DNA of 60,043 nt, taken from NCBI GenBank assembly GCA_943350445.1, contig CALRAE010000004.1, positions 1 to 60,043 of the forward strand, given 5' to 3'. The stretch is from Candidatus Nomurabacteria bacterium. GTDB lineage: Bacteria; Patescibacteriota; Minisyncoccia; Phycocordibacterales; UBA9973. Position numbers and translations under genes: made by a program. Below the pieces are notes generated by a model. It saw only the letters and a program-made list of their open reading frames with translations, was not told the origin of the DNA and did no database searches. This document shows positions 17,125 to 55,644 of the stretch, in pieces; position 1 is the first letter of the stretch; each line of letters begins with the position of its first letter.

Positions 17125-17264
17125 TAAAATTTGTCGCAGGCAAAAACTCTTTCTTGGCATAACTTTTTATAAAGCAATCTATCTGGCGCTGGTGCGCCAG
17201 CGAACTGCTCGGCGCGCCCGCCTGCGCAAGGCTTTCTAAAAAGTACGCCTGCGACGAGTTTTTA
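17125..17264. repeat. Long hairpin element, family B
   Basis: Arms tgtcgcaggc/gcctgcgacg and actttttataaagc/gctttctaaaaagt; inner hairpin ctggcgc-tggt-gcgccag; core ctcggcgcgcccgcctgcg. Confidence 0.75.
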
Positions 17265-17525
17265 AACGAGTTCAATCTTCTTCATCAAAGCGTTGTAGCG
17301 AGCTTTGCTTGTTCTCTCTAAATATTTCAAATGAGTACGTCGATCAGCCACCATCTTGATGAGGCCTCGGCGAGAGTGATTATCCTTTTTATGCTTTTTT
17401 AAATGCTTCGCTAATTCATCGATTGCGGCAGAAATAACAGCCACCTGCACCTCTGGAGAGCCTGTATCCTTGTCGTGAATCTGATTTTTCTTAATAATTG
17501 TCTGCTTTTTCTTGGTTGCTAACAT
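17262..17525 (-). CDS. rpsO: 30S ribosomal protein S15
   Basis: DTGSPEVQVA, HKKDNHSRRGL. Confidence 0.97.
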   Translation of the reverse strand: MLATKKKQTIIKKNQIHDKDTGSPEVQVAVISAAIDELAKHLKKHKKDNHSRRGLIKMVADRRTHLKYLERTSKARYNALMKKIELV

Positions 17526-17644
17526 GTGCATATATTAGCATAAACCACGGAAAAATGCAAGAAGTTAGCCAAAATTTGTTGTTTAGAAAGCCTTGCGCAA
17601 GGGTTCTAAAACATTACTTTTAGTTTTTGTGTTATCATTTTAGT

Positions 17645-18448
17645 ATGAAAATAATGTCTTGGAATGTAAACGGAATACGCGCAGTGCACAAGAAGGGACT
17701 CTTTGTGCCTTTTATTGAGAAACACCAGCCAGACATCTTGTGCTTACAAGAGACCAAGGCACAGCAACATCAAAGCGAAGTTGATTTACCTGAGTATGAA
17801 GAATACTGGAATTCAGCAGAAAAAAAAGGTTACAGTGGCACAGCAATTTTTACAAAAAAATCTCTTGGAAAACCCCTTTCCGTCATGCTCGGTCTACCAG
17901 AAAAAATTGCAAAGAAATATAATCTAAAAGATGATGAATATGGCAATCCAAACACTGAAGGTCGCGTCATTGCCCTAGAATATGAAAAGTTTTATGTAGT
18001 TAGCGTCTACACTCCGAATACCAAAGACGACCTGTCTCGTATGCCACTACGTCATAAACAATGGGATCCAGCGTTTTTAGTATATATGAAGGAATTAGAA
18101 AAAAATAAACCTGTCATATTCTGTGGAGACTTGAATGTAGCCCACACAAAAGACGACCTCGCTCGCCCGAAAGAAAATGTCGGTAATAAAGGATTCACAG
18201 ATGAAGAACGTGAAGGGATACAAAATATCGTAGAAGCTGGATTTGTAGACACTTTCCGCCTATTCACCAAAGGCAACGGACACTATAGTTGGTGGAGTCA
18301 TTTTGCGAATGCCCGAGCAAGAAACATCGGCTGGAGAATTGATTATATTTTTGTCAGTTCAAAACTAGCCAAAAAAATAGAAAGCGCCAAAATCTTCCCC
18401 GAAGTCCTAGGCTCCGACCACTGCCCTGTGTCAGTAGAAATCTTCTAG
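17645..18448 (+). CDS. xth: Exodeoxyribonuclease III
   Basis: SWNVNGIRA, LQETK, GDLNVAH, GWRIDY, SDHCP. Confidence 0.96.
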   Translation: MKIMSWNVNGIRAVHKKGLFVPFIEKHQPDILCLQETKAQQHQSEVDLPEYEEYWNSAEKKGYSGTAIFTKKSLGKPLSVMLGLPEKIAKKYNLKDDEYGNPNTEGRVIALEYEKFYVVSVYTPNTKDDLSRMPLRHKQWDPAFLVYMKELEKNKPVIFCGDLNVAHTKDDLARPKENVGNKGFTDEEREGIQNIVEAGFVDTFRLFTKGNGHYSWWSHFANARARNIGWRIDYIFVSSKLAKKIESAKIFPEVLGSDHCPVSVEIF

Positions 18449-18474
18449 AAAAAGTTTCAAAGTATATAAAAAGG

Positions 18475-18519
18475 AAAACCGCTCTTGCGAACGGAATTCC
18501 GTGCTTGAGCGGTTTTTTT
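18475..18519. terminator. Terminator between convergent genes
   Basis: aaaaccgctc...gagcggtttttt. Confidence 0.7.
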
Positions 18520-19006
18520 ACTTTTGCGGATAGAAGACACGATGCCCATACCCGGCAGGCCAAACATCATCGTGGGAGAGCTTGCAGACGTGGTAGATGT
18601 CAGGCGGACCATCGTCACTCACGTCCACGAAAGCGACCAAGCCACCTTCCATCTCAAAGAAGTTGCCGTTCGGCCCGAGCTTGTCCTTGTGTTTCGTGGC
18701 GAAAACTAGAGCTTCTTCTTTGTTCTTCCAATACCGACGTTTTTCGCCGATATCTCCGAACATCTGTTGGAAGGTTGCATTCTTGGCCAACTCGTAAATG
18801 ACGATTGTGACATTGCCAAAGTTTATAACCTCTTTCGCGAACAGTCGCTTGAGGTAAACTTTTACCTCAGCAACTCCATCCACGATAGTCTGCAGAAGAT
18901 CCGCAACCTTTTCGGGATCGCGAACTCCGTCCATGACCATCTTGCAGATCATAGCCCAGAGCTTCCACAGCCGTTCGTAGACACCGACTTTCGTTTCATT
19001 ACTCAT
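18518..19006 (-). CDS. Hypothetical protein; appears more GC-rich than its neighbours
   Basis: ORF with its own promoter TTGACT-N17-TATAAT near 19111-19139; start placed at MSNETK. Confidence 0.7.
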   Translation of the reverse strand: MSNETKVGVYERLWKLWAMICKMVMDGVRDPEKVADLLQTIVDGVAEVKVYLKRLFAKEVINFGNVTIVIYELAKNATFQQMFGDIGEKRRYWKNKEEALVFATKHKDKLGPNGNFFEMEGGLVAFVDVSDDGPPDIYHVCKLSHDDVWPAGYGHRVFYPQK

Positions 19007-19247
19007 GATGTTTTGCCTTTGCTTTTGACGAACATTCACCCGTTACTCACAGGTATATTCCGAGTGCCTCGGATAGGTTGCAGGAACTCCTGCGTTGTTT
19101 ATTCATATATATTATATACCTTTTAGAGTAAAAAGTCAAGCAAAAATGGGTCATGTACACAAATTATAAGGGGGTTTTATTAAAAATAATAAATTCTCTT
19201 AAAAATTTTATTTCCAGAATTTTCAACCATGTGTTATTATTCTAACC

Positions 19248-19889
19248 ATGAATCATGCAAGATTAGACCAACTTTCAGACGGAATATTTGCAATAGTTAT
19301 GACCGTCCTCGTTTTTCAAATCGAGCTTCCACCAATATGGGGACCGATAGATAATGCTGGACTTTGGAATGAAATTGAAAAATTGTTGCCCTTACTTCTC
19401 TCCTATATCCTAAGCTTCGCCCTCCTCTTCACCTATTGGCGCGCGCATCATTTCTTTATTTCTGTATACGCGAAAAATGTAGATTCAAAATTGATAAATA
19501 TAAATGCAATCTTTCTCATGTTTATCAGCCTTGTTCCCTTTTCAGCAAGCATCCTCGGCCAATTCAGTGAAAACGAACTCTCTGTCATAATATTCGGCAC
19601 ACATATAATACTGATAGGCCTATGCCTGTATTGGATGCGCCGATATGTCATATATTCTGAACACATCCAAAATCCAGAAATAAGTAAGCATGAAATACGT
19701 GGTAGTACTGTGCGAACTATTGTCCCCGTCTTATTTGCGCTTATAGCCATACCGCTTTCTTTTGTTAGCGTAAAGCTTTCACTCACCCTATTCACATTAG
19801 CAGTGATCTTCAACCTTTCTTCCTACAGCACGAAACTTTTCGAGAAAATATTAGACGTATTTCGTCCTTCTACTTCTATTGAGAGCTAG
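19248..19889 (+). CDS. TMEM175-family (DUF1211) potassium channel
   Basis: RLDQLSDGIFAIVMT, YW..HH, six TM helices. Confidence 0.9.
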   Translation: MNHARLDQLSDGIFAIVMTVLVFQIELPPIWGPIDNAGLWNEIEKLLPLLLSYILSFALLFTYWRAHHFFISVYAKNVDSKLININAIFLMFISLVPFSASILGQFSENELSVIIFGTHIILIGLCLYWMRRYVIYSEHIQNPEISKHEIRGSTVRTIVPVLFALIAIPLSFVSVKLSLTLFTLAVIFNLSSYSTKLFEKILDVFRPSTSIES

Positions 19890-20002
19890 AATTTTTCAAC
19901 TCCTCATCTAGCCTCTTGGCCTCTACCCAAGCAAGCTCGTATATCTTTTTCATAGCGTCAGCTATTTCTGAGCTTGAAGGTTTCTTAAATAATTTTTACT
20001 TT

Positions 20003-20863
20003 TTATTTAAGTTTCTGAAATTCTTGAATGAATTGAAGTGGGCTAACGGAAGCATTGCCGACTTTGATGGCAAAATGCAGGTGCGCGCCTTGCACATCCG
20101 CTCCTTGGTCGCCCGAATAACCGACGATATCCCCTGCTTTCACATTAGATCCAGCTTGCACTAATACTTTTGAAAGATGTAAATATTTTGAAATAATACC
20201 GTCGCCATGGTCTATGACAACTGTCGGCCCCTCTAGATAGAGCGCCTTGCCTTCACCCCAAAGAACCTCACCATCAGAAATCGCATAGACTGGCGTACCG
20301 ACTTTTGCACGCAGATCTTCTCCATGATGTGTGGTCAAGTGATTGGTGTAGATTCTTGTGTAACCAAACGCACTGGTGGTTGTCATGATCGAGAGTGGGC
20401 TACGAAAGAGAGACTGCCAAATCTTGGGTTTTGCTTCTGCTGTGGCTTTTGTAAGAGCAGCCACAAGCGGGGCTTTATTTTCTAGTACTTCCGCCTGTTT
20501 TTCTTTTGGAAGAGTCTTAAACTTATAGGCTTTTTTCATCATAACTTTTGGTTGTGTACCGGTTTTTATTTTAATAACCATCTTCTCTAATTCTTTTTCC
20601 TCTTCTTTTATTAGAAGGTTGTAATTATCGCGCTTTTTATTCACATCAGCCGCGACAAGAGCGTATTTTTTACCGTTATAATTAAAAACGGGCATTTTTA
20701 CACCACCAAACAATACTGAAGTTGTGGTCGGAAAATTTATCGGATATAAAAGTACCTCTCCTTGTTTCATAGTGAGGATGGCAGCATCCACTTCACGGCT
20801 AAATCCAAAAATACACAGCAGAAAAATTATAAAGATAAAATTTCTTTTATTAGTATTACTCAT
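20003..20863 (-). CDS. Secreted M23 metallopeptidase
   Basis: Signal peptide, HHGED, YLHL, HLHF. Confidence 0.92.
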   Translation of the reverse strand: MSNTNKRNFIFIIFLLCIFGFSREVDAAILTMKQGEVLLYPINFPTTTSVLFGGVKMPVFNYNGKKYALVAADVNKKRDNYNLLIKEEEKELEKMVIKIKTGTQPKVMMKKAYKFKTLPKEKQAEVLENKAPLVAALTKATAEAKPKIWQSLFRSPLSIMTTTSAFGYTRIYTNHLTTHHGEDLRAKVGTPVYAISDGEVLWGEGKALYLEGPTVVIDHGDGIISKYLHLSKVLVQAGSNVKAGDIVGYSGDQGADVQGAHLHFAIKVGNASVSPLQFIQEFQKLK

Positions 20864-20886
20864 ACTGCTATCATATCACTTCCTTC

Positions 20887-22530
20887 TTACTTACGGACAC
20901 CGTGTTTAATATGCAATTTCGCCACTTCTTCTTCTTCGAGTTCTTCTTTTTTCTCTTTTCCTTTATCACCGAGCGCTTTGAGTTCAGCGTCAGAAAGTAA
21001 TTCAAAAGATTTCACTAATTCAGACAGGGCTTCTATTGTATTTTTCTCTGGATTCTCTAAGACAACTTCGAGGAGAGCGTTTAGCATCCATCCCATGCGT
21101 GGTCCAGGTTTGATGCCGAGATCTTTCATTAGAAAATTACCATCTATTTTAAGTTGCCCGACAGAGATCGGGTCTCTTAGGGCTTCTTCAATCATTGCGA
21201 AATATTTTCGCAGACGATACGGCGCTTCTTTCTTCTTCATCCCTACCCTATCACACTCACGAATGTTCATCAGGAGCCAAATATTTTCCACCCCGACTTT
21301 TGCAATGATTCTACGCACTGCGCTCAAAGTAATTAATTCCGTGTCAGAGAAAAACATATGATTGCGAACAAGCTTCTCCACCAGCTCAGTTTCTTTTTTA
21401 GGAAATTTGAGCCTCTCCATTATCTTTTTCGCCATTCGAGCGCCGACTACTTCATGACCATAAAAAGTATATTTTTTCTTGGAAGCAGGCACCTTCCCCG
21501 ACAAAAATTCGAGGAGTCGTGGGTCCCCTGTCCTATTGCCTCCGAGGGCGAAGGCGGGGGAATTTTTCGTCGGGGAAGGTTCTGCAAATCTCCTCGTTTT
21601 TGGTTTTCCAATATCATGAAAAAGGGCTGCGAGCCTTATCTCTAAAGGCCAATCTTTATCCGCTGCATGCTGTAGCGCATGGAGTAAATGATCCCACACG
21701 TCATAAATATGTTCACCGAGTTGTTCACAACCTATCCCCTCCTCAAGTTCTGGAATAATATTTTTAAGCAATCCAAATTTCTGCAACATCACGATTCCAG
21801 CTGCAGGATTTTTAGATATAATTATTTTTGTAAACTCATCACGAATTCTTTCTTCTGATATTTTTTTTATTAACTCAGAATTTTTCAAAATACTTTCCAT
21901 CGTTTCGTGAGAAATAGAAAAATCTAATTGGCAAGAAAAACGAACCGCACGAAGCATTCGAAGTGCATCTTCTGTAAAACGATCATCTGCATTCCCTACT
22001 GCTCTAATAGTCTTGTCCTTTATGTCCTTTAAACCGCCAAATATGTCCTTTATAGAGTTTTTCCCAGATAGGTTGAGCGCCATGGCATTTACCCTGAAAT
22101 CACGTCTCTGAAGGTCATCTTCGAGCTTTTCACTGAATTTAACCTCATCTGGATGCCTAAAGTCAGTGTATTTTGCTTCTATCCTGTATGGAGTAACCTC
22201 AACTATTAGATAGTTAGGTTCTAGTGTTTCTTGTGAAACATCACTTTTTAATGTTTCACGTGCAACATCCTCCTTTTTTGTTTCACGCGGAACGCACACC
22301 CCCACAGTCCCAAAGGTATTCTCGTATACAGTCTTTTCAAATAGCTTTATAATCTGGTCTGGTTTGGCATTCGTTGTCACATCCCAGTCCTTAGGAACCC
22401 TCTCCATTAGAAGATCTCGAACACAACCACCCACTAAATACGCCTCAAAACCCCCTTTTTCTAAGGTTTTGGTTACATGTGAAACTTCTTTAGGTATTTT
22501 TGATATTAAGTTTTGGTTTACAAGATCCAC
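20887..22530 (-). CDS. cca: CCA tRNA nucleotidyltransferase with HD domain
   Basis: YLVGGCVRD, DWDVTT, RRDFRVNA, EDALRMLRA, HDIGKP; start moved to GTG 22530 so it does not overlap the tRNA. Confidence 0.92.
   Translation of the reverse strand: MDLVNQNLISKIPKEVSHVTKTLEKGGFEAYLVGGCVRDLLMERVPKDWDVTTNAKPDQIIKLFEKTVYENTFGTVGVCVPRETKKEDVARETLKSDVSQETLEPNYLIVEVTPYRIEAKYTDFRHPDEVKFSEKLEDDLQRRDFRVNAMALNLSGKNSIKDIFGGLKDIKDKTIRAVGNADDRFTEDALRMLRAVRFSCQLDFSISHETMESILKNSELIKKISEERIRDEFTKIIISKNPAAGIVMLQKFGLLKNIIPELEEGIGCEQLGEHIYDVWDHLLHALQHAADKDWPLEIRLAALFHDIGKPKTRRFAEPSPTKNSPAFALGGNRTGDPRLLEFLSGKVPASKKKYTFYGHEVVGARMAKKIMERLKFPKKETELVEKLVRNHMFFSDTELITLSAVRRIIAKVGVENIWLLMNIRECDRVGMKKKEAPYRLRKYFAMIEEALRDPISVGQLKIDGNFLMKDLGIKPGPRMGWMLNALLEVVLENPEKNTIEALSELVKSFELLSDAELKALGDKGKEKKEELEEEEVAKLHIKHGVRK
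21491..21580. repeat. 90-nt in-frame hairpin element inside cca
   Basis: accttccccgacaaaaattc / gaatttttcgtcggggaaggt arms; encodes the PSPTKNSPAFALGGNRTGDPRLLEFLSGKV insert. Confidence 0.8.
22225..22294. promoter_or_regulatory. Three parS-like sites at 27-bp spacing inside cca
   Basis: tgtttcttgtgaaaca, tgtttcacgtgcaaca, tgtttcacgcggaacg vs consensus TGTTNCACGTGAAACA. Confidence 0.8.
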
Positions 22531-22540
22531 CTTAATTTTG

Positions 22541-22611
22541 TGCGGCCAGAGAGAATCGAACTCTCGTCTCATCCTTGGCAAGGACGTGTTCTACCACTAA
22601 ACCATGACCGC
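22541..22611 (-). tRNA. tRNA-Gly(GCC), CCA not encoded
   Basis: Cloverleaf GCGGTCA...TGGCCGCA; anticodon arm gtcct-tGCCa-aggat; GTTCGA T-loop. Confidence 0.95.
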
Positions 22612-22730
22612 AAAATTATTTTTAATCATTCAATTATATATTAAATTCAGCATATTGCAATTTTATATTCTGAGCTTATAAAATAACGTTATTTTACTAA
22701 AGATAAATATAATGTATAATTAAACATTAT

Positions 22731-22802
22731 GCACCCGTAGTGAAATGGATATCATACCCGCCTTCGAAGCGGTTGTTGGGGGTTCGAATCCCTCCGGGTG
22801 CA
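22731..22802 (+). tRNA. tRNA-Arg(TCG)
   Basis: GCACCCG...CGGGTGCA, anticodon loop ctTCGaa, GGTTCGAATCC. Confidence 0.95.
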
Positions 22803-22898
22803 CACGAAAGAGTAAATTTATTTACTCTTGTGAGGGTTTCGAAAGATTTTTTGTTATTTTACAAGATAAAATCAAAAAATACCTGGCCATGTAATGGC

Positions 22899-22918
22899 CG
22901 AATCCCTCCGGGTGCACA
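22899..22918 (+). repeat. 20-bp direct copy of the tRNA-Arg 3' end (att-like)
   Basis: cgaatccctccgggtgcaca identical to 22785-22804. Confidence 0.9.
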
Positions 22919-23117
22919 TCAGAAAGTTGTTCCAAAATTAATCATACCTGTCCTTTATTGAAACCTTATTAAATAATAGTTTTGTGTAAGAGTGTGGATA
23001 ACTATGTTGGTAATGTTTATAAAGGACATGTTTTATAATTGTCTTTTGGGGGGATTTTAACTAAAATATCTTGTGAGATAAGGATATTTTTATAAAAGAC
23101 ATCAAATATAGTACTTT

Positions 23118-23133
23118 TGTTTCACGTGAAACA
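23118..23133. promoter_or_regulatory. Perfect parS site; degenerate copies at 22471, 23144, 23250
   Basis: tgtttcacgtgaaaca is the canonical ParB-binding palindrome. Confidence 0.9.
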
Positions 23134-23185
23134 TATTTATTGCTGTTACTTGTGAAACGTTATAAAATATAGCTTTATAGTATAT

Positions 23186-23572
23186 ATGCCGAAAGTATTC
23201 ACCTCAGAAACTCAAAAAATAGGGGAAATAGGGGAGAATATAGCTGTAAAGTTTCTCATGAAACATGGTTTTGAGGTTTTAGACCGTAATTATACTAAAA
23301 AATGGGGTGAAATAGACATAGTGGCTCAAAAGGACACAAAAATTTACTTTATTGAGGTAAAAAGTATAAACGCCGAGATAGCAGGAGGGGAACATAGAGC
23401 CGAAGACAATATGCACCCGAGGAAATTGCAAAGACTAGCGCGAGTAATTCAGACATATCTTCTCTACAAGAAATGGTACGAGGGGGAATGGCAAGTTGAT
23501 TTATTGGTTATTTATTTAAATATGAAAAACAAAACTGCTCGAATAAAAGTAGTAAGTGATATTATTTTATGA
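23186..23572 (+). CDS. YraN-family (UPF0102) nuclease-like protein
   Basis: GEIGENIA, RNY...GEIDIVA, FIEVK. Confidence 0.92.
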   Translation: MPKVFTSETQKIGEIGENIAVKFLMKHGFEVLDRNYTKKWGEIDIVAQKDTKIYFIEVKSINAEIAGGEHRAEDNMHPRKLQRLARVIQTYLLYKKWYEGEWQVDLLVIYLNMKNKTARIKVVSDIIL

Positions 23573-23582
23573 TTCGAATCTG

Positions 23583-23653
23583 TGCGGGATAGGCGAATCG
23601 AACGCCTGCCAACAGTTTGGAAAACTGTAGTTCTACCACTAAACTAATCCCGC
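23583..23653 (-). tRNA. tRNA-Gly(TCC)
   Basis: GCGGGAT...ATCCCGCA; anticodon loop ttTCCaa. Confidence 0.95.
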
Positions 23654-23678
23654 TTATATAAAAACCTGTAAATAACGC

Positions 23679-23752
23679 TGGTCGGGCTGCTGGGAGTCGA
23701 ACCCAGCCTAAATGCTCCCAAAGCACTTGTACAACCGATATACTACAGCCCG
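23679..23752 (-). tRNA. tRNA-Pro(TGG), CCA encoded
   Basis: CGGGCTG...CAGCCCGACCA; loop ttTGGga. Confidence 0.93.
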
Positions 23753-23888
23753 TAGTTACGTTAACTGCGTTATTCTAACACAACAAATATAAATATTCTA
23801 GTAAAAACTAATTTTTAGTTTTTACACTCAAAAAAATTCATAGATTATCGAAATTTTAATATCTTGTGCTATTATTCAACCATAAACC

Positions 23889-24638
23889 ATGATAACCACA
23901 TACATATACACATTTGGAAGTATTCTGGTGGTCAGCCTTATTTCATTCATAGGAATTTTTACTCTTGCAATAAAAGAAGAAGTTCTTCGTAAATATATTT
24001 TTATATTCATCAGCATTGCTGTGGGCGCTCTTTTGGGCGATTCTTTTATACATTTAATTCCTGAAGCATTTGCAGATACGACTAACCAAGTTCTTACTAG
24101 TGTCCTAATAATTGCAGGAATACTTTTCTTTTTTATTCTAGAAAAATTTCTCCATTGGCACCACCACGGAGAAGACAAAGAGGACACACACATTCATCCA
24201 GTTGGAAAGTTGGTTTTGTTTTCTGATGGTGTCCACAATTTCATGGACGGCATGATCATAGCAGCGAGCTTCTTGGTGAGCATCCCTGTGGGACTAGCCA
24301 CGACTCTAGCTGTTATTTTACACGAAATACCTCAAGAAATAGGGGATTTTGCTGTGCTTTTACATTCTGGATATACAAAACAGAGGGCCCTCTGGCTTAA
24401 TTTTCTATCAGCCCTAACAGCGATTGCAGGTGCTATTGTGCTCTTTAGTCTAGGGGAGGTGGCAGAGGCATCAACATCTTGGTTTCTACCCATTGCAGCT
24501 GGTGGATTTATATATATTGCCCTTGCAGACTTGATACCTGAACTTCAAAAAACAAAAGAGGCTCGATATTCAATCATGCAGATACTCGCAGTCGTAGCTG
24601 GAGTCTTGGCGATGGTTGCTTTGACTTTTTTAGAGTAA
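23889..24638 (+). CDS. ZIP-family metal transporter
   Basis: HLIPEA, His-rich loop, DGVHNF, HEIPQEIGDF. Confidence 0.94.
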   Translation: MITTYIYTFGSILVVSLISFIGIFTLAIKEEVLRKYIFIFISIAVGALLGDSFIHLIPEAFADTTNQVLTSVLIIAGILFFFILEKFLHWHHHGEDKEDTHIHPVGKLVLFSDGVHNFMDGMIIAASFLVSIPVGLATTLAVILHEIPQEIGDFAVLLHSGYTKQRALWLNFLSALTAIAGAIVLFSLGEVAEASTSWFLPIAAGGFIYIALADLIPELQKTKEARYSIMQILAVVAGVLAMVALTFLE

Positions 24639-24736
24639 AAACATAAATAGCACAAAATTTTTTCTGTCCGAGGGATCCACCCTGTACTCAGGGAAGGGCG
24701 CAGGACAAAAAATTTTGTGCTATTTATGTTTTTACT
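24634..24736. repeat. Long hairpin element, family A (30-bp perfect arms)
   Basis: Arms 24634-24663 / 24707-24736; 37-nt core shared with 48006-48042. Confidence 0.9.
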
Positions 24737-24884
24737 TTTTAAAATTTTTAGTGGTCAGGAATAATTTTGTTTCCGTCAAAACAAAATTTTCACGACCCTG
24801 CCTCGCTTGTTTTCTTTACTAAGAAAACATAGCTGTGGCTCAAACTCAATTAGAAAAAACCCAAGCAGTTGGATTTTCTCTAAT

Positions 24885-26171
24885 TTAGTTTGCCCAACTC
24901 CAGTCAGTACCTGGATTTTTAGCGCTAAAAACTTCGAAGTGAATGTGCGGGCCAGTAGAACGTCCTGTATTACCGACATAGCCGATGATCTCACCACGAG
25001 CCACTGTTGATCCAGTCCTGGTGCCCAACCTAGACATATGCGCATAGAGGGTCTTCGTGCCATTTGGATGTTGTACGATTGCCATATTTCCATAACCTCC
25101 ACCACAACGTGTCTGCCCAACCCTACAACCAGTTTTAACTATAATAACTGTGCCGGATGCAGATGCGTATATAGGCGTACCCGTAGGCGCGCCTATATCT
25201 ATACCACGATGTCCAGGACCATGGAGACCTTGGGTTTTGTGTCCAGTAGGAACTGGGTTTATGAAAAATCCAGTAAGGTTTTGTATTGGATTAGCATCAT
25301 AATAATTCTTATCGCGAATCGGAGCGGAGCTCAAGTTTGAAGCTGGCTTGTCACCTCCTTCATCGGCCATGTCGCCACCAGGAACCATTATTTTGTCACC
25401 TATAGCTAGCTTACTATCAAATGCAATATCATTATAGAAAGCTATTTCACTCACATCTACCTTGTAAAGCTTGGCAATACTCTTTAATGTCTGCCCTTTG
25501 GCTACAGTATGCTCAAGTCCAGAAACAGGCAAAATAAAAAGCACGTCGCCTTCGACGAGCTTGTCACTTTTTTTCATATCATTCGCCCACAATATAGTAT
25601 TTGCAGAGACATCGAACATTTTGGCTATAGCAGAGATAGAATCACCCTTTCGAACCACATAGACACTAGTCTGCAGGGAAGATGGGTCCACCGCATCAGT
25701 GCCGTCTGAGACACCGAGGGGGCCTGTCGCCGGAAGCATGGCATTATCAGAGACGATATTAACATTTACACTAGTATTTATAGGCTCTTCTTTGCTTATA
25801 TCCTTTTTATTTTCCTTTTTCTCGATTACTTCTTGAAAAATAGAGGCTGAAGACACATTGGCCTGTAAAAGTGCCATAGTTTGGGAATTTTGAGGTAATT
25901 TATTATAAAGTTGAGTAGAATCTGTTGTGTTTGTTTGTGCATATGCCTCATCACCTAAAAAGGAAGATAGGAAGCCAGCGTTTGCTGGCAAGGGCTTTAT
26001 CATATAGGAAGCCGACAAGAAAAAGCCAAATAAAATGGAAAATACCAGAATAGAGCGGAATATGTTAAATAGTGATTTTATAAAACAATCTAAAGTATCG
26101 AAAGATTTCCTCTCTAACCCTTTTAAAATAAGGGTAGAATCGCAGGACGACCGAAATTGTACTGCAAACAA
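24885..26171 (-). CDS. LysM x2 plus M23 peptidoglycan endopeptidase (start uncertain)
   Basis: YVVRKGDSIS and HTVAKGQTL LysM repeats; HRGID, YAHM, STGPHIHFE. Confidence 0.92.
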   Translation of the reverse strand: MFAVQFRSSCDSTLILKGLERKSFDTLDCFIKSLFNIFRSILVFSILFGFFLSASYMIKPLPANAGFLSSFLGDEAYAQTNTTDSTQLYNKLPQNSQTMALLQANVSSASIFQEVIEKKENKKDISKEEPINTSVNVNIVSDNAMLPATGPLGVSDGTDAVDPSSLQTSVYVVRKGDSISAIAKMFDVSANTILWANDMKKSDKLVEGDVLFILPVSGLEHTVAKGQTLKSIAKLYKVDVSEIAFYNDIAFDSKLAIGDKIMVPGGDMADEGGDKPASNLSSAPIRDKNYYDANPIQNLTGFFINPVPTGHKTQGLHGPGHRGIDIGAPTGTPIYASASGTVIIVKTGCRVGQTRCGGGYGNMAIVQHPNGTKTLYAHMSRLGTRTGSTVARGEIIGYVGNTGRSTGPHIHFEVFSAKNPGTDWSWAN

Positions 26172-26395
26172 AGGTTCTCGCGACGGTTACTGTCTTCTCC
26201 ATCTTCCAGCCAGCTCATACCATACCTCTCTTCAGTGCTACCCCCATAGAATAGTTCAAAAAGGGTCAAAAGTCAATCTAGTTGGGGATAACGAGTGAAT
26301 AGCTAAAATTTGACAAGACTGTAAAAAAGGTGTATAATTGATAAATAGTCTTAAAAAAATTAGTGTTGAAAAATTAAAAACTATATAATATATTT

Positions 26396-27811
26396 ATGGA
26401 TACAGGACCACAAAATAATGAAGAGACAAATAGAATCGAAGCAGAACTAGAGGCAACGAAGTTGCAAGATGAACAAGCTAGAGCAGAAGGGAATCCACCA
26501 AGTAGTACGCCCACACCCCCTTTTTGGACAGAAACAAAGACAAAAATAGCGAAAATAACAGGCTTGACAGCGGCGACGGGTGTCGGTCTTTTCGGTGCTT
26601 ATAAAGGGACAGAAAAGGGAGCACAATTTGCAGGAGATAAGACTAGTGATTGGATGACCCCTAAAGCAAAAAATGTCCAACAAGTGCCCGCAAGACCAAA
26701 CATGAATCCTGGCTACACAAATAATGAACCAAATTTACCACTAATGGTAAATCCAGTTATAACACCCACAAATTCTACAGAATTTTCTAGAACCAATCTT
26801 CCTCCAGGCCTACCACCTTTAACACCACCATCCGTCAATACTAATAGTTTAGAAAGTGCTGTAACGGCTGCACTAGCTAGAGCAAATGCTGAATCAGCAA
26901 AGTTGAGGCAACAAGTAGAAGATGCAGCAGCCAAGCAAGCAGCACTAGAGAAAAAACATGCTGCGGCACTAGAAGAACAAGCAAAAATGTTTCGACGAGA
27001 AGTACAAATAGTACAGAATGTACAAACACCAATAGAAACAGTGGCACCAGAAAAAACCATAGAGCAAATGAAGGAGGAAAGGAGAGAAATGGAAGCACAA
27101 AAAAGAATGGCGGAAATAGAAGCAAGAAATACAGCAACAGAAGAAAATAATCGCAATGCCCCAGTAGGATACAAAATGGGATCTACAACAGAATTACCAC
27201 CACTTAGAGCTCCAGCAATGAATAAGGCTCCTACGCCAAAACCAACAGGGGTACAATTTAATACAAGGCCTGATGAAGGAGTAAAATTTAATGCCACCAT
27301 CACAGAAGCAAACAGAGAAGCAATAGTAAATGCAATACCGAGACCTCCAGTAGGAGTAAATGTCATAAGCAGAGGTATGGGTGGATACAATATAACCACT
27401 GCCCCAAATCCAGGCCCAGTAAATATTGCTACGGAAGCTCCAACCAACGTTAATGACGGAAACCCTTTCAAGTTATCACAAAAAGCACTTGAAGAAATCG
27501 AGGATATTTACGAAAGAAACTTGGTAAAAATTTTCCCTAAAAACACGCTAGGGAAGTGGATGAATATAAACAAAGAGAGCGCTTATGATTTTATGAGTAA
27601 ACCGAGAGAAAAAGTCCCGAAAGAATACGAACACATATTTACCACTGAAGAATATAAACGCCTCTGCACTTTCTTAGAGAAACTCAAGGTAACAACCGGT
27701 GAGCTTCCCAAGCTCGGTGCCTCTACTGGAAAGCCTGAAAGCATACAAGACTATATGAATAGAACGATGCAAAAAGCCGCATCACAAGGATTACTGTCTA
27801 AAATAAAATAG
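26396..27811 (+). CDS. Pro/Asn/Thr-rich hypothetical protein with coiled coil
   Basis: 471-aa ORF with promoter TTGACA-N17-TATAAT (26310-26338) and a terminator. Confidence 0.8.
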   Translation: MDTGPQNNEETNRIEAELEATKLQDEQARAEGNPPSSTPTPPFWTETKTKIAKITGLTAATGVGLFGAYKGTEKGAQFAGDKTSDWMTPKAKNVQQVPARPNMNPGYTNNEPNLPLMVNPVITPTNSTEFSRTNLPPGLPPLTPPSVNTNSLESAVTAALARANAESAKLRQQVEDAAAKQAALEKKHAAALEEQAKMFRREVQIVQNVQTPIETVAPEKTIEQMKEERREMEAQKRMAEIEARNTATEENNRNAPVGYKMGSTTELPPLRAPAMNKAPTPKPTGVQFNTRPDEGVKFNATITEANREAIVNAIPRPPVGVNVISRGMGGYNITTAPNPGPVNIATEAPTNVNDGNPFKLSQKALEEIEDIYERNLVKIFPKNTLGKWMNINKESAYDFMSKPREKVPKEYEHIFTTEEYKRLCTFLEKLKVTTGELPKLGASTGKPESIQDYMNRTMQKAASQGLLSKIK

Positions 27812-27847
27812 AAAAACAAAATATCCCGAAAGGGGTATTTTGTTTTT
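27812..27847. terminator. Intrinsic terminator
   Basis: aaaaacaaaatatccc-gaaa-ggggtattttgttttt. Confidence 0.85.
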
Positions 27848-27855
27848 ATGCTAAG

Positions 27856-29949: not shown

Positions 29950-29966
29950 CATGTATAATTAGAAAT

Positions 29967-31517
29967 ATGAAAATATTTAACAAACAAATATTTTATGTGT
30001 TCAGTTCATTTCTGGCTGGATTTGCCATAATGACAATTGAGCTTATTTCTTCAAGAATAGTGGCCCCAATAATAGGATCTTCTGTTTTTACATGGACATC
30101 AGTAATAGGAATAACAATGCTGGGACTTGCTCTTGGTGGCTATATTGGCGGACAAATAGCAGACAAAAAAGAAGGCAGGGAAACACTTCCAATTATATTT
30201 CTAATTTCTTCAATACTTGTTTTCTTAATACCAATATTGGCAAAAAATACCGATTTTATTATAAATTCATCTACTTCCATATTAAAATTGAATTTATATT
30301 TATCCGTGTATCTTTTTCTATTACCGACATTCTCCATAGGACTCATTTACCCAATAATACTAAAACAATTTGTCAGCAATCTTTCATTAATTGGTAGTCG
30401 TTATGGCATACTATCGTTTGCTTGGTCAGGAGGGGGGATACTTGGTGTGTTTTTAACAGGATTTTTCTTTATATCAAATATTGGGAGCAGTGAAACACTT
30501 TGGCTTATGTCTATTGTACTGTTTTTAGTTGGAGGGATTTTTGCATTAGAAAACAAAATAAACAAAAAAACACTTTGGCTTTTTATATTAACAATAATTG
30601 TTACATCTATACTTTTTTATACAACTCAACAAAAAAAACAAAGCAAGAATATAATATTTCAAAAAGAAACAAACTATTACGATGCAAGGGTTATTGACGC
30701 ATATCTTCCACTATATGAAAATTCAAGAATTTTAATGCTAGATTTTGATTTTCACAGTATTGAATCAAAAAAAGTGGTGCAAAATTACCCAACTATATAT
30801 CCAGTTTTTGCTAATCTAAAAAGTAATATAGAGAGAATATTAGTAATAGGTGCTGGAGCATATACTCTGCCGAAATATTTTAAAAATTATTATAAAAATT
30901 CAGATATTTCAGTTGTAGAAATAGATCCTGAGATGATAAATATTGGTGAAACTTTTTTTGATCTAAAAAAATACGACATAAAAACAATTGCAGGGGATGC
31001 CAAAATAGTAATAAAGAAAAACAAAGAAAAATATGATGTAATTTTTGGTGATTCTTATAATTCATTTATTTCTGTTCCTTGGTATCTCTTAACTAAAGAA
31101 TGGAATGAGCAAGTAAAAGAAAAATTAACTGAAAACGGGGTATACGCTATAAATTTTATCGGATCTCTGAATGGAAACAAATCAGAATTTACAAAAAGTG
31201 TTTTAAATACTTTTAAAATTAGCTTCCCGAATTTTTACATCTTTGCATTCGGAGAAAATCTAGAACATGCTCAAAGTATTGTATTACTAGGAGTAAAAGG
31301 AGAGCTACCCATAAGTGAACAAGGGCTTCAACAGAAATTGTCAATTGGGGAAAACGATTTTTTGGCAAATAAAATAATTCCGGCTGCATTTTTTAAAAAT
31401 ATACCATCTATAATACTCACAGATAATTTTTCACCCATTGAAAAACTGATGGAGCCCATGATAAAAGATTATTTTCCAAAAAATCTAGCCCAGCTTAAAA
31501 AAGTATTATTACCATGA
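29967..31517 (+). CDS. Fused membrane domain / spermidine synthase-like SAM-binding protein
   Basis: ~7 TM helices then ILVIGAGAY, VVEIDPEM, YDVIFGD, ILTDNFSP. Confidence 0.88.
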   Translation: MKIFNKQIFYVFSSFLAGFAIMTIELISSRIVAPIIGSSVFTWTSVIGITMLGLALGGYIGGQIADKKEGRETLPIIFLISSILVFLIPILAKNTDFIINSSTSILKLNLYLSVYLFLLPTFSIGLIYPIILKQFVSNLSLIGSRYGILSFAWSGGGILGVFLTGFFFISNIGSSETLWLMSIVLFLVGGIFALENKINKKTLWLFILTIIVTSILFYTTQQKKQSKNIIFQKETNYYDARVIDAYLPLYENSRILMLDFDFHSIESKKVVQNYPTIYPVFANLKSNIERILVIGAGAYTLPKYFKNYYKNSDISVVEIDPEMINIGETFFDLKKYDIKTIAGDAKIVIKKNKEKYDVIFGDSYNSFISVPWYLLTKEWNEQVKEKLTENGVYAINFIGSLNGNKSEFTKSVLNTFKISFPNFYIFAFGENLEHAQSIVLLGVKGELPISEQGLQQKLSIGENDFLANKIIPAAFFKNIPSIILTDNFSPIEKLMEPMIKDYFPKNLAQLKKVLLP

Positions 31518-35967: not shown

Positions 35968-36000
35968 AGAGTAGTTTTAAAGTTCATAAAGTGAATTAAA

Positions 36001-41155: not shown

Positions 41156-41193
41156 AGCTAGGCAAGACCTAACATGTTAGGTCTTGCCTAGCT
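41156..41193. repeat. Perfect 38-bp palindrome
   Basis: agctaggcaagacctaacatgttaggtcttgcctagct. Confidence 0.9.
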
Positions 41194-44147: not shown

Positions 44148-45233
44148 ATGAAATACGTAAAATACATTCTTATACTTGTTGCATTAATCGGATTTTTTGT
44201 GCCGATGATAAAAGTGGATGCCCAAGCTGCTCCACAGGGAACTTGTACTTACAATTATATTGTAAGGGGGACAGTTAGAAACACACCAACAGAAATAGAA
44301 ACTGAAGCGGCTTGTAGGGCAAGACCATCGCCAATATCTTGGACAACTTGTATGTACACAGCAAACAACCGTAGTAACAGTAGACTCGAAGCTCCAAGTG
44401 ACACTGAAACGCGATGTAAAACACGATTAGGCGGAACATGGACATCAATATCATTAAATGGAACGACCCCGAGTACAGGAGGGGGGGCTGGCGGAGTAAC
44501 GGCTCCTGTAAATTCTACATACCAATTTTTGGCTCCACTGCCTTGCGAGCCAAGTAAAGATGCAGGATGTGACCCAACTACAAAGACTCTCAAGACCTTT
44601 GATGCCACTAGCGGCTTGGTTGCATATCTAAACTTAATGATAAAGATATTCATCGGCTTGTGTGCAGTTTTAGCCGTAGTGATGATAGTGGTAGGAGGTA
44701 TGGAGTATATGACGAGTGAGCTCGCCCACACCAAAGAATCCGGCAAGGAGAGGATTGAACATGCACTACTGGGCCTCATCATAGCCCTAGGTGCCTATGC
44801 GCTTCTTTTTACGATAAATCCCGATCTGCTCAAATCAGATATAAAACCAACATCGACAAATGTCACCCTACCCGCATCACAAGGAGATCTTATTGTTAAT
44901 AATAAACAACCAGAAACAATAGGAAGTTGTTCTTATAAAATTGAAAATATAAATTTTACCATAAACGATAGCAAAGAACTGTGTGATAGATTAAAGGGGA
45001 CATGGACAGCAAATACATCTGGTGGAAATAGTCAGCCGCCAGAAACAAATAGCCGGCCTGCTACTGGAGCTACAACACAAGGAAGTTGGTACTTCAAACC
45101 TCAAAGTCCTAGTGGAATGAATATAATTGCTGGACCTTTTACGACTCAAGAAGAATGTATACAAAGAGAAACGACAGACGGTTATCCGATAATAAAACCG
45201 TGCACTCAGTCTAATGGAACACCAAACTGGTAA
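44148..45233 (+). CDS. TrbC/VirB2-like pilin-domain protein with Cys-rich flanks
   Basis: AVLAVVMIVVGGMEYMTS...GKERI..ALLGLIIAL..Y.LL.TINPDL. Confidence 0.82.
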   Translation: MKYVKYILILVALIGFFVPMIKVDAQAAPQGTCTYNYIVRGTVRNTPTEIETEAACRARPSPISWTTCMYTANNRSNSRLEAPSDTETRCKTRLGGTWTSISLNGTTPSTGGGAGGVTAPVNSTYQFLAPLPCEPSKDAGCDPTTKTLKTFDATSGLVAYLNLMIKIFIGLCAVLAVVMIVVGGMEYMTSELAHTKESGKERIEHALLGLIIALGAYALLFTINPDLLKSDIKPTSTNVTLPASQGDLIVNNKQPETIGSCSYKIENINFTINDSKELCDRLKGTWTANTSGGNSQPPETNSRPATGATTQGSWYFKPQSPSGMNIIAGPFTTQEECIQRETTDGYPIIKPCTQSNGTPNW

Positions 45234-45237
45234 TTTT

Positions 45238-46590
45238 ATGTCAAAAAGAAATTTTATACTTTTAATAATAATTCTGGTCATCGTAATAATTGCTGTTTTA
45301 GGATTTCTGTATCTACGAAAAGACACAACCACCCCGACAGATCCTGGCATAGGGACAAACTTTTTCTCACAATTTAATCCTTTTGGAACAAAGCCCACAC
45401 CTCCAGTCACCAAGCCTCCAGTAGATGTCTCTGGATACCAGCCACCGACTGCACCAGAACAAACCAAACTAATGAAGGTTTCTAGTATGCCTGTAGCTGG
45501 ATTCACTGTATTCACTAAAGAAAGGCTCAAGGACGTACCCGTAGCCCCCCTCCTTGTGGAGGAGGGGGTTCCGGGTGGTGAAACTCCTACCACACCGACA
45601 GCAAAAAAATCGACAAAAGTTACCCCGACTGCACCACTCACTGAATTCGTCTTGGCTTTGAGGTATGTGGCAAGATCTAACGGTAACATCTACCAAACAT
45701 TTGTAGATAAAATCCAAGAAAGAAAATTCTCTAAAACTGTAATCCCAAAAGTGTATGATGCTTATTTTGGCAACCGCGGGAATTCTGTAGTTATGCGATA
45801 TTTAAAATCTAATGATGAGACGATAGAAACCTTCGTTGGAGCTTTACCAAAAGAATTACTAGGAGGGGACACAACCATAAACAACGAAGTTAAAGGCTCC
45901 TTTTTGCCAAATAATGTAAAAGATGCCAGCGTATCGCCTGATGGTTCAAAAATTTTCTACTTGTTTGAGGATGAAAATGGTGTTGTGGGAACAATTTTAA
46001 ATTTTACAGACAACAAGAAAACTCAAATTTTTGATTCTCCTTTTACTGAATGGTTGTCAGTTTGGCCAAATAGTAGCCTGATAAATCTTACAACCAAACC
46101 TTCTGCGAATATCCCTGGATATGTTTATACGATGAATTCGAGCGGAAGCAATTTAAGTAAAATCTTGGGCGACATCAACGGACTCACGACTTTAGGTGGC
46201 CCAAATAGTAAATCGATCCTCTACGGCGATGATAAACTGTCTTTGAATATTTACAATATTGACAAAAGAAGCTCAGAGAAACTAGGATTAAAAACACTTC
46301 CAGAAAAATGTGTCTGGAATAAAACAGGGGACTTTATATATTGTGCTGTACCGATAACGGTTGAAGGAAATTTATATCCAGACGCTTGGTATCAAGGGGT
46401 AACAACTTTTGATGATCAATTTTGGAAAATAGATGTAAAAACTGGCAACACTACAACAATCTTGGACCCAGTAGATGAAAAAGGTGGGACAGCCATAGAT
46501 GGAACCAAACTCACCCTAGATGAAAACGAAAATTACCTATTTTTCGTAAACAAAAAAGATTCTTTTCTTTGGAAGCTGGATCTTAAGTAA
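45238..46590 (+). CDS. Membrane-anchored beta-propeller-like protein
   Basis: Signal anchor from MSKRNF, Pro/Thr linker, SPDGSKIFY TolB/WD40-like blades. Confidence 0.8.
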   Translation: MSKRNFILLIIILVIVIIAVLGFLYLRKDTTTPTDPGIGTNFFSQFNPFGTKPTPPVTKPPVDVSGYQPPTAPEQTKLMKVSSMPVAGFTVFTKERLKDVPVAPLLVEEGVPGGETPTTPTAKKSTKVTPTAPLTEFVLALRYVARSNGNIYQTFVDKIQERKFSKTVIPKVYDAYFGNRGNSVVMRYLKSNDETIETFVGALPKELLGGDTTINNEVKGSFLPNNVKDASVSPDGSKIFYLFEDENGVVGTILNFTDNKKTQIFDSPFTEWLSVWPNSSLINLTTKPSANIPGYVYTMNSSGSNLSKILGDINGLTTLGGPNSKSILYGDDKLSLNIYNIDKRSSEKLGLKTLPEKCVWNKTGDFIYCAVPITVEGNLYPDAWYQGVTTFDDQFWKIDVKTGNTTTILDPVDEKGGTAIDGTKLTLDENENYLFFVNKKDSFLWKLDLK

Positions 46591-46706
46591 AAAAAATTAA
46601 GAAATAAACTTTTGAAGGGGTTTCGTAGGCTGACGAGCCGAGAACTTCAGAATTTTTCAAGCTTCGAAAAATTCGTACCGGAAAAAGTTTGATTTCTTAA
46701 TTTTTT
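46591..46706. repeat. Long hairpin element, family B, filling the gap between two convergent stop codons
   Basis: Arms aaaaaattaagaaataaactttt / aaaagtttgatttcttaatttttt; core cgtaggctgacgagccgag. Confidence 0.85.
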
Positions 46707-47187
46707 AAATAGAGCCCGTATATTTTATCACCACTCGGCGAGAAAGGCCCATACCTGTTGACTCAGTTTTAAGATCTGTCGCACCAGAGAGGAATTCGTG
46801 TACAATACGACGTTCAAAAGCTGACATCGGATCAACTTCAATGCTTGATTTGAAATATCGTGCCCTTTCTCCCATCATGTGAGCCACGGCTCGGACGTTT
46901 TCTACACGCTTTTTTTGAAAACCATTAATATCAATTAAAATATTGGAGGAATTAGATTCTGGATCTTTTACTTTATCTGTTATATCAACCTCAATCATTC
47001 TACGAACAAGATGATTTAGGGCGTACAAAGCTTCACCATCATGACCTATAAAAAAGTGCGGTTCATTGACCTCGACTGAGAACCAGGTGCTGTCTGCACC
47101 ATCAGGAGTAATGACAATATCTTTTACCACAACCCCAGTTTTCTCAACCAACTCTTTTATTAAATTTTGTATCTTTGACTTATCCAT
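46705..47187 (-). CDS. jag: Jag/KhpB-like KH-R3H RNA-binding protein
   Basis: IGHDGEALYAL, PMSAFERRIVH; follows yidC. Confidence 0.88.
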   Translation of the reverse strand: MDKSKIQNLIKELVEKTGVVVKDIVITPDGADSTWFSVEVNEPHFFIGHDGEALYALNHLVRRMIEVDITDKVKDPESNSSNILIDINGFQKKRVENVRAVAHMMGERARYFKSSIEVDPMSAFERRIVHEFLSGATDLKTESTGMGLSRRVVIKYTGSI

Positions 47188-47973: not shown

Positions 47974-48073
47974 AGAAAATGTACAATTGCACAAATTTTA
48001 CACTTCCGAGGGTCCCACTCGGTAATCCGAGAAGGGCGCAGGAATGTAAAATTTGTGCAATTGTACATTTTCT
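47974..48073. repeat. Long hairpin element, family A (29-bp perfect arms)
   Basis: Arms 47974-48002 / 48045-48073; core 48006-48042. Confidence 0.9.
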
Positions 48074-54013: not shown

Positions 54014-54051
54014 TCTTTCAATTATAGCAGTAAATATGTTAGAATCCGAGT

Positions 54052-55272
54052 ATGAAATTGGTGAAACAAGAAGACCTCCGCAGTGGCGGGGCAAGTAAAA
54101 TTGAAGAGTTGCTTACTAGAGGAGTTGATAAAATATATCCTTCTAAAGAAGCGCTAGAAAAAGAGTTGTTTTCTGGTAAGAAATTAAAATTATATCAAGG
54201 TTTTGATCCTACGGGTATCAAATTACACCTTGGCCATATGGTGGGTTTTCGTAAGCATAGACAATGGCAAGACCTTGGCCATGAAGTTATTTTTCTCATT
54301 GGTGATGGGACTGGTCAAGCAGGAGATCCAACTGGGAAAAAGCAAACACGAGAGAAATTCTTTACTCAAGAAGAATTGCGTGCTAATTCCAAAGATTATC
54401 TTTCTCAGGCTTCTAAAATAGTTCGTTTCGATGGTCTAAATCCTATTAAAATACTTTACAATAGTGATTGGTTAAATAAATTAACCTTGGTGGATATTTT
54501 AAATATAGCTCAAAATTTTTCTGTCCAGCAACTCATCGAGCGAGATATGTTTCAAGAGCGTTTAAAAGCAGGGGAGTCTATAAATTTGCGTGAATTCCTA
54601 TACCCACTTCTTCAGGGCTATGATTCTGTTGCTATGGATGTCGACCTAGAGTTGGGTGGTTCTGATCAGACCTTTAATATGCTCACTGGACGTACTCTAA
54701 TGAAGAGCATGAAAAATAAAGAAAAGTTTGTGATGACTACACCCCTTCTTTCTGATTCTAAGGGTGTGAAGATAGGAAAAAGTGAAGGTAATGTAATTGG
54801 GCTGACTGATGCTCCAAATGATCTATTTGGTAAGATAATGTCGTTGGGGGATGATGCTATTATTCCGATGTTTACATTACTTACGGATGTTCCAATAGAG
54901 GAAATAAATAAATTTGACCTTAAAAAAGATGCGATGAGTTTAAAGAAACAAGTGGCTTCAATTATAATAACTCAGCTACATGATGAAGCTTCAGCCAAGT
55001 CAGCTGCAGACAGTTTTGCTAGTACTTTTCAAAAGAAAGAAATTCCCAATAAAATGCAGGAAGTAAAAGCTAAAGCAGGGGAGTTTCTGAGTGAGGTATT
55101 AGTCAAAAACAAAATTTTATCTTCAAAGAGTGAGTGGAGAAGGTTGGTTGCGGGGAATGCTATCCATGATCTGTCTATAAATAAAACTATCACTGATGTA
55201 GATTTAAAAATTTCCCAAGATCTGACTCTCAAAATAGGTAAGAAAAAGTTTATAAAAGTAATACTAAATTAA
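54052..55272 (+). CDS. tyrS: Tyrosine--tRNA ligase
   Basis: GFDPTG..LHLGH, YPLLQGYD, GGSDQ, KIGKS, S4 domain. Confidence 0.97.
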   Translation: MKLVKQEDLRSGGASKIEELLTRGVDKIYPSKEALEKELFSGKKLKLYQGFDPTGIKLHLGHMVGFRKHRQWQDLGHEVIFLIGDGTGQAGDPTGKKQTREKFFTQEELRANSKDYLSQASKIVRFDGLNPIKILYNSDWLNKLTLVDILNIAQNFSVQQLIERDMFQERLKAGESINLREFLYPLLQGYDSVAMDVDLELGGSDQTFNMLTGRTLMKSMKNKEKFVMTTPLLSDSKGVKIGKSEGNVIGLTDAPNDLFGKIMSLGDDAIIPMFTLLTDVPIEEINKFDLKKDAMSLKKQVASIIITQLHDEASAKSAADSFASTFQKKEIPNKMQEVKAKAGEFLSEVLVKNKILSSKSEWRRLVAGNAIHDLSINKTITDVDLKISQDLTLKIGKKKFIKVILN

Positions 55273-55298
55273 AACACCCCGTTCGGGGTGTTTTAATT
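55267..55298. terminator. Bidirectional terminator
   Basis: aattaaaacacccc-gttc-ggggtgttttaatt. Confidence 0.9.
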
Positions 55299-55436
55299 TT
55301 AGTGGAATCTATTTTCTGGATCGTCATCATCATCTCCCACAGGGAGGTCTGGCATATCTTCTGGGTCTACCGGTTCATCATCATCAGCTCCCATTTTAAA
55401 ATTGGCTCCTATTTCTTCATTTTCGTCATTACTCAT
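55299..55436 (-). CDS. 45-aa highly acidic microprotein (absent from the ORF track)
   Basis: MSNDENEEIGANFKMGADDDEPVDPEDMPDLPVGDDDDDPENRFH, ending at the terminator. Confidence 0.7.
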   Translation of the reverse strand: MSNDENEEIGANFKMGADDDEPVDPEDMPDLPVGDDDDDPENRFH

Positions 55437-55523
55437 ATATATTTTGAATTATTATTAATTTCTTACTTTGTACCAAAATATAAAAAGCTTCGCAATAGCA
55501 AAAAGACTTCTAGTGTGGATAAC

Positions 55524-55644
55524 TATCAAAAAAGATAGAAAATACTTTTTAAAACCATTGCGACCAGCTATCGAGCCGAGTATAGCAAAATGCGAGCACG
55601 CATTTATGTGCGGTTTTTAAAAATACTTTCTATCTTTTTTGATA
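55524..55644. repeat. Long hairpin element, family B, overlapping the ruvC stop
   Basis: Arms tatcaaaaaagatagaaa.. / ..tttctatcttttttgata; core cgagccgag plus inner hairpin aaatgcg-agca-cgcattt. Confidence 0.8.

Follow-up and report, generated by a model that had tools for sequence, protein, structure and literature searches.

What are the long hairpins that recur, with a common core and dissimilar arms, beside and inside unrelated genes of a Candidatus Nomurabacteria genome? The question is raised by a 60,043-nt stretch of contig CALRAE010000004.1 (assembly GCA_943350445.1; this whole stretch is hereafter the window), in which an earlier note, drawn from the letters alone, had grouped four hairpins as family B by their CTCGGC core. 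Our analysis confirms that observation: the four hairpins are true copies of a small mobile-DNA family. [quoted passage not shown]

The order described in the note, namely arm, inner hairpin, 7-8 nt, CTCGGC hairpin and arm, is true of all four copies, in which CTCGGC runs from 17208 (+), 28969 (+), 46642 (-) and 55580 (-). The grouping had been made to depend on CTCGGC being scarcer outside long inverted repeats and on the spacing being conserved in further copies. On the first point the outcome is divided, as the bare hexamer is not specific (it occurs 17 times in the window, where 11.1 occurrences are expected, and 13 of the 17 lie outside the elements), whereas the 14-nt word CTCGGCNCGNNNGC is confined to the elements, with four exact matches in the window and five at no more than one mismatch, where 0.65 are expected and none of 100 shuffles reaches five. 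The signal is carried only by the longer word. Throughout the source genome (G000; 616,971 bp in 15 contigs), CTCGGCNCGNNNGC has seven exact matches, all in long hairpins and at the same relative place, and the spacing is kept in the three additional copies.

All seven copies of the word fold alike. Near-perfect outer arms of about 25-35 bp lead into a short closing helix, followed by an inner hairpin of variable sequence (H1), a linker of 7-8 nt that separates H1 from the CTC foot of a second hairpin (H2, made up of CTC and then a 4-bp stem with the loop CGNN), and a GCG-containing tail; the closing helix, H1 and H2 make up a three-helix core. The whole element measures about 115-145 bp (115-160 bp as compared with MITEs) and is without coding capacity of its own. 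The arms, which had been described as unrelated, are unique in their outer part only, the inner 10-20 nt being conserved within a subfamily. Such subfamilies emerged from an inverted-repeat census of G000, which returned about 33 long-armed elements assignable to families and in which the H2 word stands in four contexts, each represented by one window copy:

B1, jag type: AT-rich, three copies plus four variants with another module replacing H2.
B2, pcrA type: GC-rich, two copies in G000, the second in frame in tgt.
B3, ruvC type: two copies in G000.
B4, rpsO type: one copy plus four variants with a long AT hairpin replacing H2.

As the note had stated, three of the window copies lie at gene 3' ends and one is in frame in pcrA, and Pfam matches (S15, NYN, UvrD/PcrA, R3H/Jag, TyrRS and RuvC) confirmed the gene contexts. 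The elements, their parts and their neighbors are as follows:

17122-17266 (+): B4 element between rpsO and the NYN-domain gene, from inverted-repeat pair I11, Pfam and model score.
17122-17141 and 17247-17266: B4 outer arms.
17183-17200, 17201-17207 and from 17208: H1, linker and H2 word of the B4 element.
17262-17531 (-): rpsO (S15), neighbor of B4.
16596-17105 (-): NYN-domain gene, neighbor of B4.
28906-29021 (+): B2 element, in frame in pcrA.
27856-29949 (+): pcrA (UvrD/PcrA open reading frame, ORF), host of the window B2 copy.
28943-28960, 28961-28968 and from 28969: H1, linker and H2 word of the pcrA B2 element.
28927-28998: the 72-nt core of the same element as delimited by the covariance model.
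29022-29055 (+): stump left by an older, oppositely oriented B2 copy, with the core end and right arm (pair I7).
46591-46706 (-): B1 element, which occupies the entire spacer separating two convergent stop codons (pair I8).
45214-46590 (+) and 46705-47187 (-): neighbors of B1, a 458-aa ORF and jag (R3H), respectively.
55524-55644 (-): B3 element at the ruvC 3' end (pair I2).

The B4 element is antisense to both of its neighbors, and the right arm of the B3 element covers the final 15 nt of ruvC (55630-56109, -). Upstream of B3, tyrS (54052-55272, +) has a separate, ordinary terminator-like hairpin at 55266-55299. The predicted translation of the pcrA insert includes ..GSLSPRVRGALPLGSSACET.., and directly behind this intact element lies the 29022-29055 stump, which corresponds by homology to the right end of those copies that stand in reverse orientation at the pcrA site of relatives (L008 compared with L009, L012, L018 and L024). 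An intact forward B2 element beside an older, reversed stump indicates that new elements land in or beside old ones.

The grouping of the four subfamilies was supported by a covariance model trained on 14 B2 cores alone, which aligned end to end with the rpsO-type B4 (33.2 bits), with B1 at two of three loci (23.5 and 19.4 bits) and with the window ruvC copy of B3 (16.5 bits). At the window jag copy (L003) it matched H2 only, locally, with 17.5 bits, and the score of the second B3 copy of G000 (6.3 bits) was not significant. Because a model of B2 alone aligns end to end with other subfamilies, the grouping of the four copies reflects a common architecture.

The helices of the core are kept by compensatory change. 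Between the tgt and pcrA copies, both small hairpins show strand swaps with unchanged loops, and across the 14 B2 cores 95.9% of cells are paired and 11 of 21 pairs carry double changes; none of 500 shuffles reaches any of four structure measures, and pairing falls to 35-50% when partners are slid. In a larger set of 86 distinct cores from 106 model hits, whose alignment was fitted to the covariance model and hence favors the structure, 96.9% of cells are paired and 14 of 21 pairs are double-changed (267 such cells), again with 0 of 500 shuffles reaching these values. The arms behave differently from the core: in 40 B2 copies core identity is 0.90 and arm identity 0.53, 0.46 and 0.33 at 1-10, 11-20 and 21-30 nt from the core, while the flanks form a median of 30 pairs, compared with 10.5 when right flanks are swapped between copies. 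Matched, compensated differences between orthologous arms are found between G000 and its closest relative, G013, at C1:28865, and between L066 and L067.

Elements of the GC-rich subfamily B2 are inserted in frame within protein genes, whichever their orientation, and are open through the ORF. Among 129 distinct copies, 119 are contained in ORFs of 120 or more codons, and the remaining 10 lack a long ORF; relative to the host gene, 64 of the genic copies are in sense and 55 in antisense orientation. One sense frame (GSLSP..ALPLGSSACET) accounts for 59 of them, one antisense frame (GVSQADEPRGSA..) for 50 and other frames for 10. The same nucleotides are conserved in whichever reading, which indicates that the constraint is on the nucleic acid, and the host accepts mainly two benign translations. 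Simple in-place inversion of the core may not be the source of the two orientations, since the two favored frames differ from those that an exact flip would yield. Of 109 available host ORFs, 72 were scanned, from a sample of one to a few best hits per genome that is not random; TsaD (16), TGT (15) and UvrD/PcrA (14) account for 45 of them combined, followed by class-I tRNA synthetases (6), MnmA (2), UvrB (2) and Fmt (2), with nine further families represented singly and six ORFs matching no family. As separate observations on such genes, LeuRS ORFs of relatives (L093, L112) contain a whole NUDIX Pfam domain mid-protein, and a class-I synthetase of the Ile/Val type (L211, L226) contains a His_Phos_1 domain in a similar, mid-protein position.

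Individual insertion sites show how often such inserts are present. The pcrA site, just before the LYRANFQSR block, holds an in-frame long-armed hairpin at 15 of 18 examined loci of the genus (B2 forward at four, B2 reversed at four, other cores at seven); it is without an insert at two genus loci and the sole outgroup locus, and it is empty in 12 of 12 genomes of the order's other families, in which the adjacent matches leave gaps of no more than 27 nt. Among 30 loci, the tgt site has 25 long inserts, one short insert and four empty sites, the long inserts bringing the distance between anchors to 141-228 nt and belonging to several families, with B2 in four loci. In-frame, stop-free insertions in conserved ORFs that are missing from orthologues, an RPE-like trait, are therefore present at these sites.

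The elements insert as whole units, arms included. Both the jag 3' copy and C1:29859 of G000 are missing from G013 together with their two arms, and the net length inserted in the case of the jag and tgt copies is that of the entire element. The idea that one arm is native flank and the other a fold-back copy was rejected at jag and tgt, where empty sites lack both arms; a single AT-rich resemblance in its favor is too weak to count. Fresh copies are found in genome G113, which has about ten B2 copies with identical 27-nt arms and 5-nt ends beginning with CA; complete copies of this burst measure 123-126 bp and occupy short spacers at gene ends, and the direction of the core relative to the 5-nt ends is mixed, two copies against two. 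They are flanked by exact direct repeats of 10, 10, 7, 7, 5, 5 and 3 nt (null mean 3.4; P(>=8) = 0.006), and both 7-nt repeats extend to 10 nt with one mismatch. These repeats of about 10 bp, seen in the sequence of one genome, may be target duplications and resemble a MITE signature. In two G113 copies (L296, L300) a further nested hairpin, about 30 nt long, stands between H1 and H2.

The 72-nt B2 core model has matches in 83 of 101 genomes of the genus, with 1-12 copies each, a tally that takes in the unpublished genome G071. In addition, a degenerate 36-nt pattern, matched exactly, occurs in at least 118 stretches, located in metagenome-assembled genomes (MAGs) named as Candidatus Nomurabacteria, Paceibacterota or Patescibacteria and in those of two Kaiserbacteria. 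The window DNA, that of an ultra-small lake bacterium, occurs in lake-water metagenomes and in no listed RNA data set; one 657-nt metagenome contig spans the pcrA copy, unchanged. Contigs from the source run (X1) stop at the B4 hairpin and at a family C hairpin near 31.8 kb, while the A, D and B2 hairpins are internal to intact X1 contigs; metagenome contigs also break at a four-tRNA gene cluster (22541-23752). In practical terms, these hairpins break metagenome assemblies and give marker proteins loops that look spurious.

Families A, C and D have the same design as family B, with different cores. Their elements, and further inverted repeats of the window, are listed here:

24626-24744 and 47974-48073: family A elements with near-perfect arms of 34-38 nt; the core of about 40 nt has its own small hairpin and a GGGCGCAGG tail, and three further genome copies are in reverse orientation.
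31789-31881: family C element, in frame in the 289-aa ORF 31514-32383; the family has eight genome copies and also occupies the pcrA and tgt sites in other species.
21489-21582: family D element, inside the 564-aa ORF 20887-22581.
41156-41193: perfect 38-bp palindrome (17-bp stem, 4-nt loop), bare and coreless, just after an ORF ending at 41152.
57723-57876: inverted repeat, not placed in any family, whose 26-nt arms are complementary at 85% and stand 102 nt apart.

An additional GC-rich family of nested hairpins is in frame in jag at L056 (G045), L057 (G044) and L058 (G048), and lies downstream of jag in three other species (L039, L050 and L051).

If family B is indeed mobile DNA, its elements would spread as DNA by means of some transposase supplied in trans, and after insertion the two arms would co-evolve, their complementarity staying while their sequence drifts. 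The host would filter genic copies to the two frames that give harmless loops rich in Gly, Ser, Pro and Ala, and copies trapped in essential genes may last longest, since the genome otherwise deletes spare DNA. The AT-rich subfamilies B1, B3 and B4 carry stop codons and would last only within the handful of bases that separate genes, which may be why they are found at gene 3' ends.

Several results weigh against this explanation. The B1-type copies, of which G000 and G007 each contain seven, combine near-identical cores and very similar inner arms with outer arms that are all unique, so that simple copy-and-drift works only if selection or gene conversion holds the cores. At C1:65856, G000 has a B1 element and G013 a family A element with other arms, within flanks that are about 97% identical; at C1:28865, the arms and H1 of the same two genomes are orthologous and H2 has been replaced by another hairpin. 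Resident in-frame copies are more conserved than expected of a neutral loop. The 33 elements of G000 are without flanking direct repeats (mean 4.4, null 4.2), which confines the evidence for duplication to one genome, and metagenome contigs from four DNA runs, compared with 16800-36799 of the window, contain no junction that removes an element. Nor did a mobilizer appear: the search of G113 turned up no autonomous element whose ends match, all arm pairs being about 115 bp apart; PF01609 is absent from G113, G000 and G013, which are MAGs that may lack repeats and in which other transposase families were not searched; and the sole IS4/5-like ORF, in G072, has ends unrelated to the elements. An IS4/5-type transposase, none of which occurs in the burst genome G113, was accordingly rejected as the mobilizer.

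These misfits are compatible with an exchange of modules at the tips of hairpins, or with selection acting on the core. It is conceivable, if rather improbable, that the three-helix core is a structure-read module that is selected in essential genes and moves between the tips of existing hairpins. H2 and neighboring modules would then be exchanged on arms that stay in place, new elements would insert into older ones, and the movement would be guided by DNA or RNA shape and not by terminal sequence, through an enzyme not yet recognized. Such a module would explain the conserved core with free arms, the unlike cores that sister species have at a single site and the unique outer arms of B1.

We consider it unlikely that the core is a functional structured RNA (a cis-regulator, a protein-binding site or a new self-cleaving ribozyme built on a three-way junction) which the arms serve to present. 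The strong covariation in H1, H2 and the closing helix, the invariant junction and loop bases, the architecture common to B1-B4 and a core more conserved than its surroundings would all fit such an RNA. Against it stand the near balance of 64 sense and 55 antisense copies in host genes, the intergenic copies, which lie in sense, in antisense or between convergent or divergent genes, and the harm that self-cleavage in the sense strand of essential mRNAs (pcrA, tgt, tsaD) would do; moreover, fresh copies act like transposed DNA with flanking repeats. A search of the window with Rfam 15, small ribozymes included, returned only tRNAs at the gathering score, and up to an E-value of 10 only generic microRNA-precursor hairpin models matched. 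Hammerhead, twister, pistol and hepatitis delta virus (HDV)-like ribozymes were rejected by eye on both strands, as the junction words do not seem to fit their consensus sequences.

Similarly doubtful is the proposal that family B resembles repetitive extragenic palindromic (REP) sequences and REPINs and is spread by Y1 (HUH) transposases acting on single-stranded DNA hairpins, as proposed for REPs and the REP-associated tyrosine transposases (RAYTs). G000 has two PF01797 (Y1) genes that clear the Pfam cut-off and contain the HUH and Tyr motifs:

C5, L090:1279-1914 (-): Y1/HUH transposase gene.
C13, L091:164-847 (+): Y1/HUH transposase gene, flanked on both sides by a 20-nt direct repeat in which there is a small palindrome, with a truncated duplicate of its 5' end upstream.

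Their presence and their weak likeness to the RAYT model (34-39 bits, cut-off 80) favor this proposal, as do a core made of small hairpins with conserved single-stranded feet and locations at gene 3' ends and in repair and tRNA-enzyme genes, as described for REPs in PMC3733652. However, each Y1 gene of G000 is flanked by its own short palindrome (four occurrences, all at one locus), homologues at 27 named loci are likewise flanked by palindromes, of other sequence, and no A-D core, family B included, was found beside the Y1 genes. The same source defines REPs as palindromes of 20-40 bp with, on one side, an unpaired terminal tag, GTAG or CGTC (PMC3733652); no such tag stands at the stem feet of family B, in which H2 has CTC as its foot and CGTC appears solely as an H2 loop. 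Y1 transposition, furthermore, makes no duplication, while the burst copies have repeats of about 10 bp. The other palindromes at the Y1 genes, together with the flanking repeats, argue against a REP/RAYT mechanism, and the Y1 transposases are not supported as the mobilizer.

Least probable of all is that the long hairpins are host structures (terminators or mRNA-stabilizing stems) in which movement, or exchange between hairpin loops, is limited to the small modules at the tip (H2, about 19 nt): the unlike H2 on orthologous arms and H1 at C1:28865, the B1 and B4 variants with other inserts in place of H2, the extra nested hairpin in the core of some G113 copies and the intergenic copies adjoining stop codons speak for it, but coding copies cannot be terminators, gain, loss and copying involve whole elements with their arms, a simple terminator scan (blind to loops longer than 8 nt) flagged no element as a whole, and tyrS has a terminator-like hairpin of its own.

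Taken together, the observations favor small mobile palindromes, and their setting gives them wider meaning. CPR genomes are tiny and streamlined, yet this lineage holds dozens of palindromic inserts, several of them read through in essential tRNA-modification and DNA-repair enzymes. The lineage also lends itself to the study of how long hairpins come to be tolerated, to stay paired and to be exchanged. Among the papers listed in our full-text searches, none joined CPR with MITEs, REPIN/RAYT systems or palindromic elements, which is no proof that the elements are unpublished.

Comparable inverted repeats embedded in genes are known from organelles, in the form of the GC clusters of yeast mitochondria. 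Nematomorpha mitochondria also have long inverted repeats in protein-coding genes that are read through (PMC6649704); these palindromes are coding, like family B, but organellar, the abstract as listed describes no conserved three-helix core, and no relatedness is implied. Among bacterial systems, REPs and REPINs resemble family B in being short hairpins that lie at the 3' ends of genes, in spaces between convergent genes and within some enzyme genes (PMC3733652), and Y1 transposase genes are present in G000. The bias of family B toward genes for tRNA and DNA enzymes echoes that of intragenic REPs, which the same text reports in repair-enzyme, tRNA-synthetase and pseudouridine-synthase genes (PMC3733652). 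Unlike REPs and REPINs, family B is without the tag, has flanking repeats and is low in copy number (B2, 1-12 per genome).

The RPEs are closer. They, too, are palindromes of about 100-150 bp that sit in frame in housekeeping genes unrelated to one another, within a reduced genome, and that are translated into additional loops, and in them, too, a conserved hairpin is predicted. Their in-frame frequency is described in the review PMC10969869. Family B differs in its CPR host, in a conserved core with drifting arms, in its nearly equal use of both orientations and in the flanking repeats of one burst, and its resemblance to RPEs is one of traits. With MITEs such as Correia, ERIC and RUP, family B shares small size, the lack of an ORF of its own, dispersal, terminal inverted repeats and the flanking repeats of fresh copies. 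In a typical MITE, the terminal repeats are conserved and recognized by the transposase, and the interior varies. In family B, by contrast, the interior is conserved and the ends drift, and no partner insertion sequence was found. Family B is unusual among MITEs and RPEs in that the conserved part is the folded interior and not the ends, and it would provide a second, independent case, besides Rickettsia, of selfish palindromes shaping proteins in reduced genomes.

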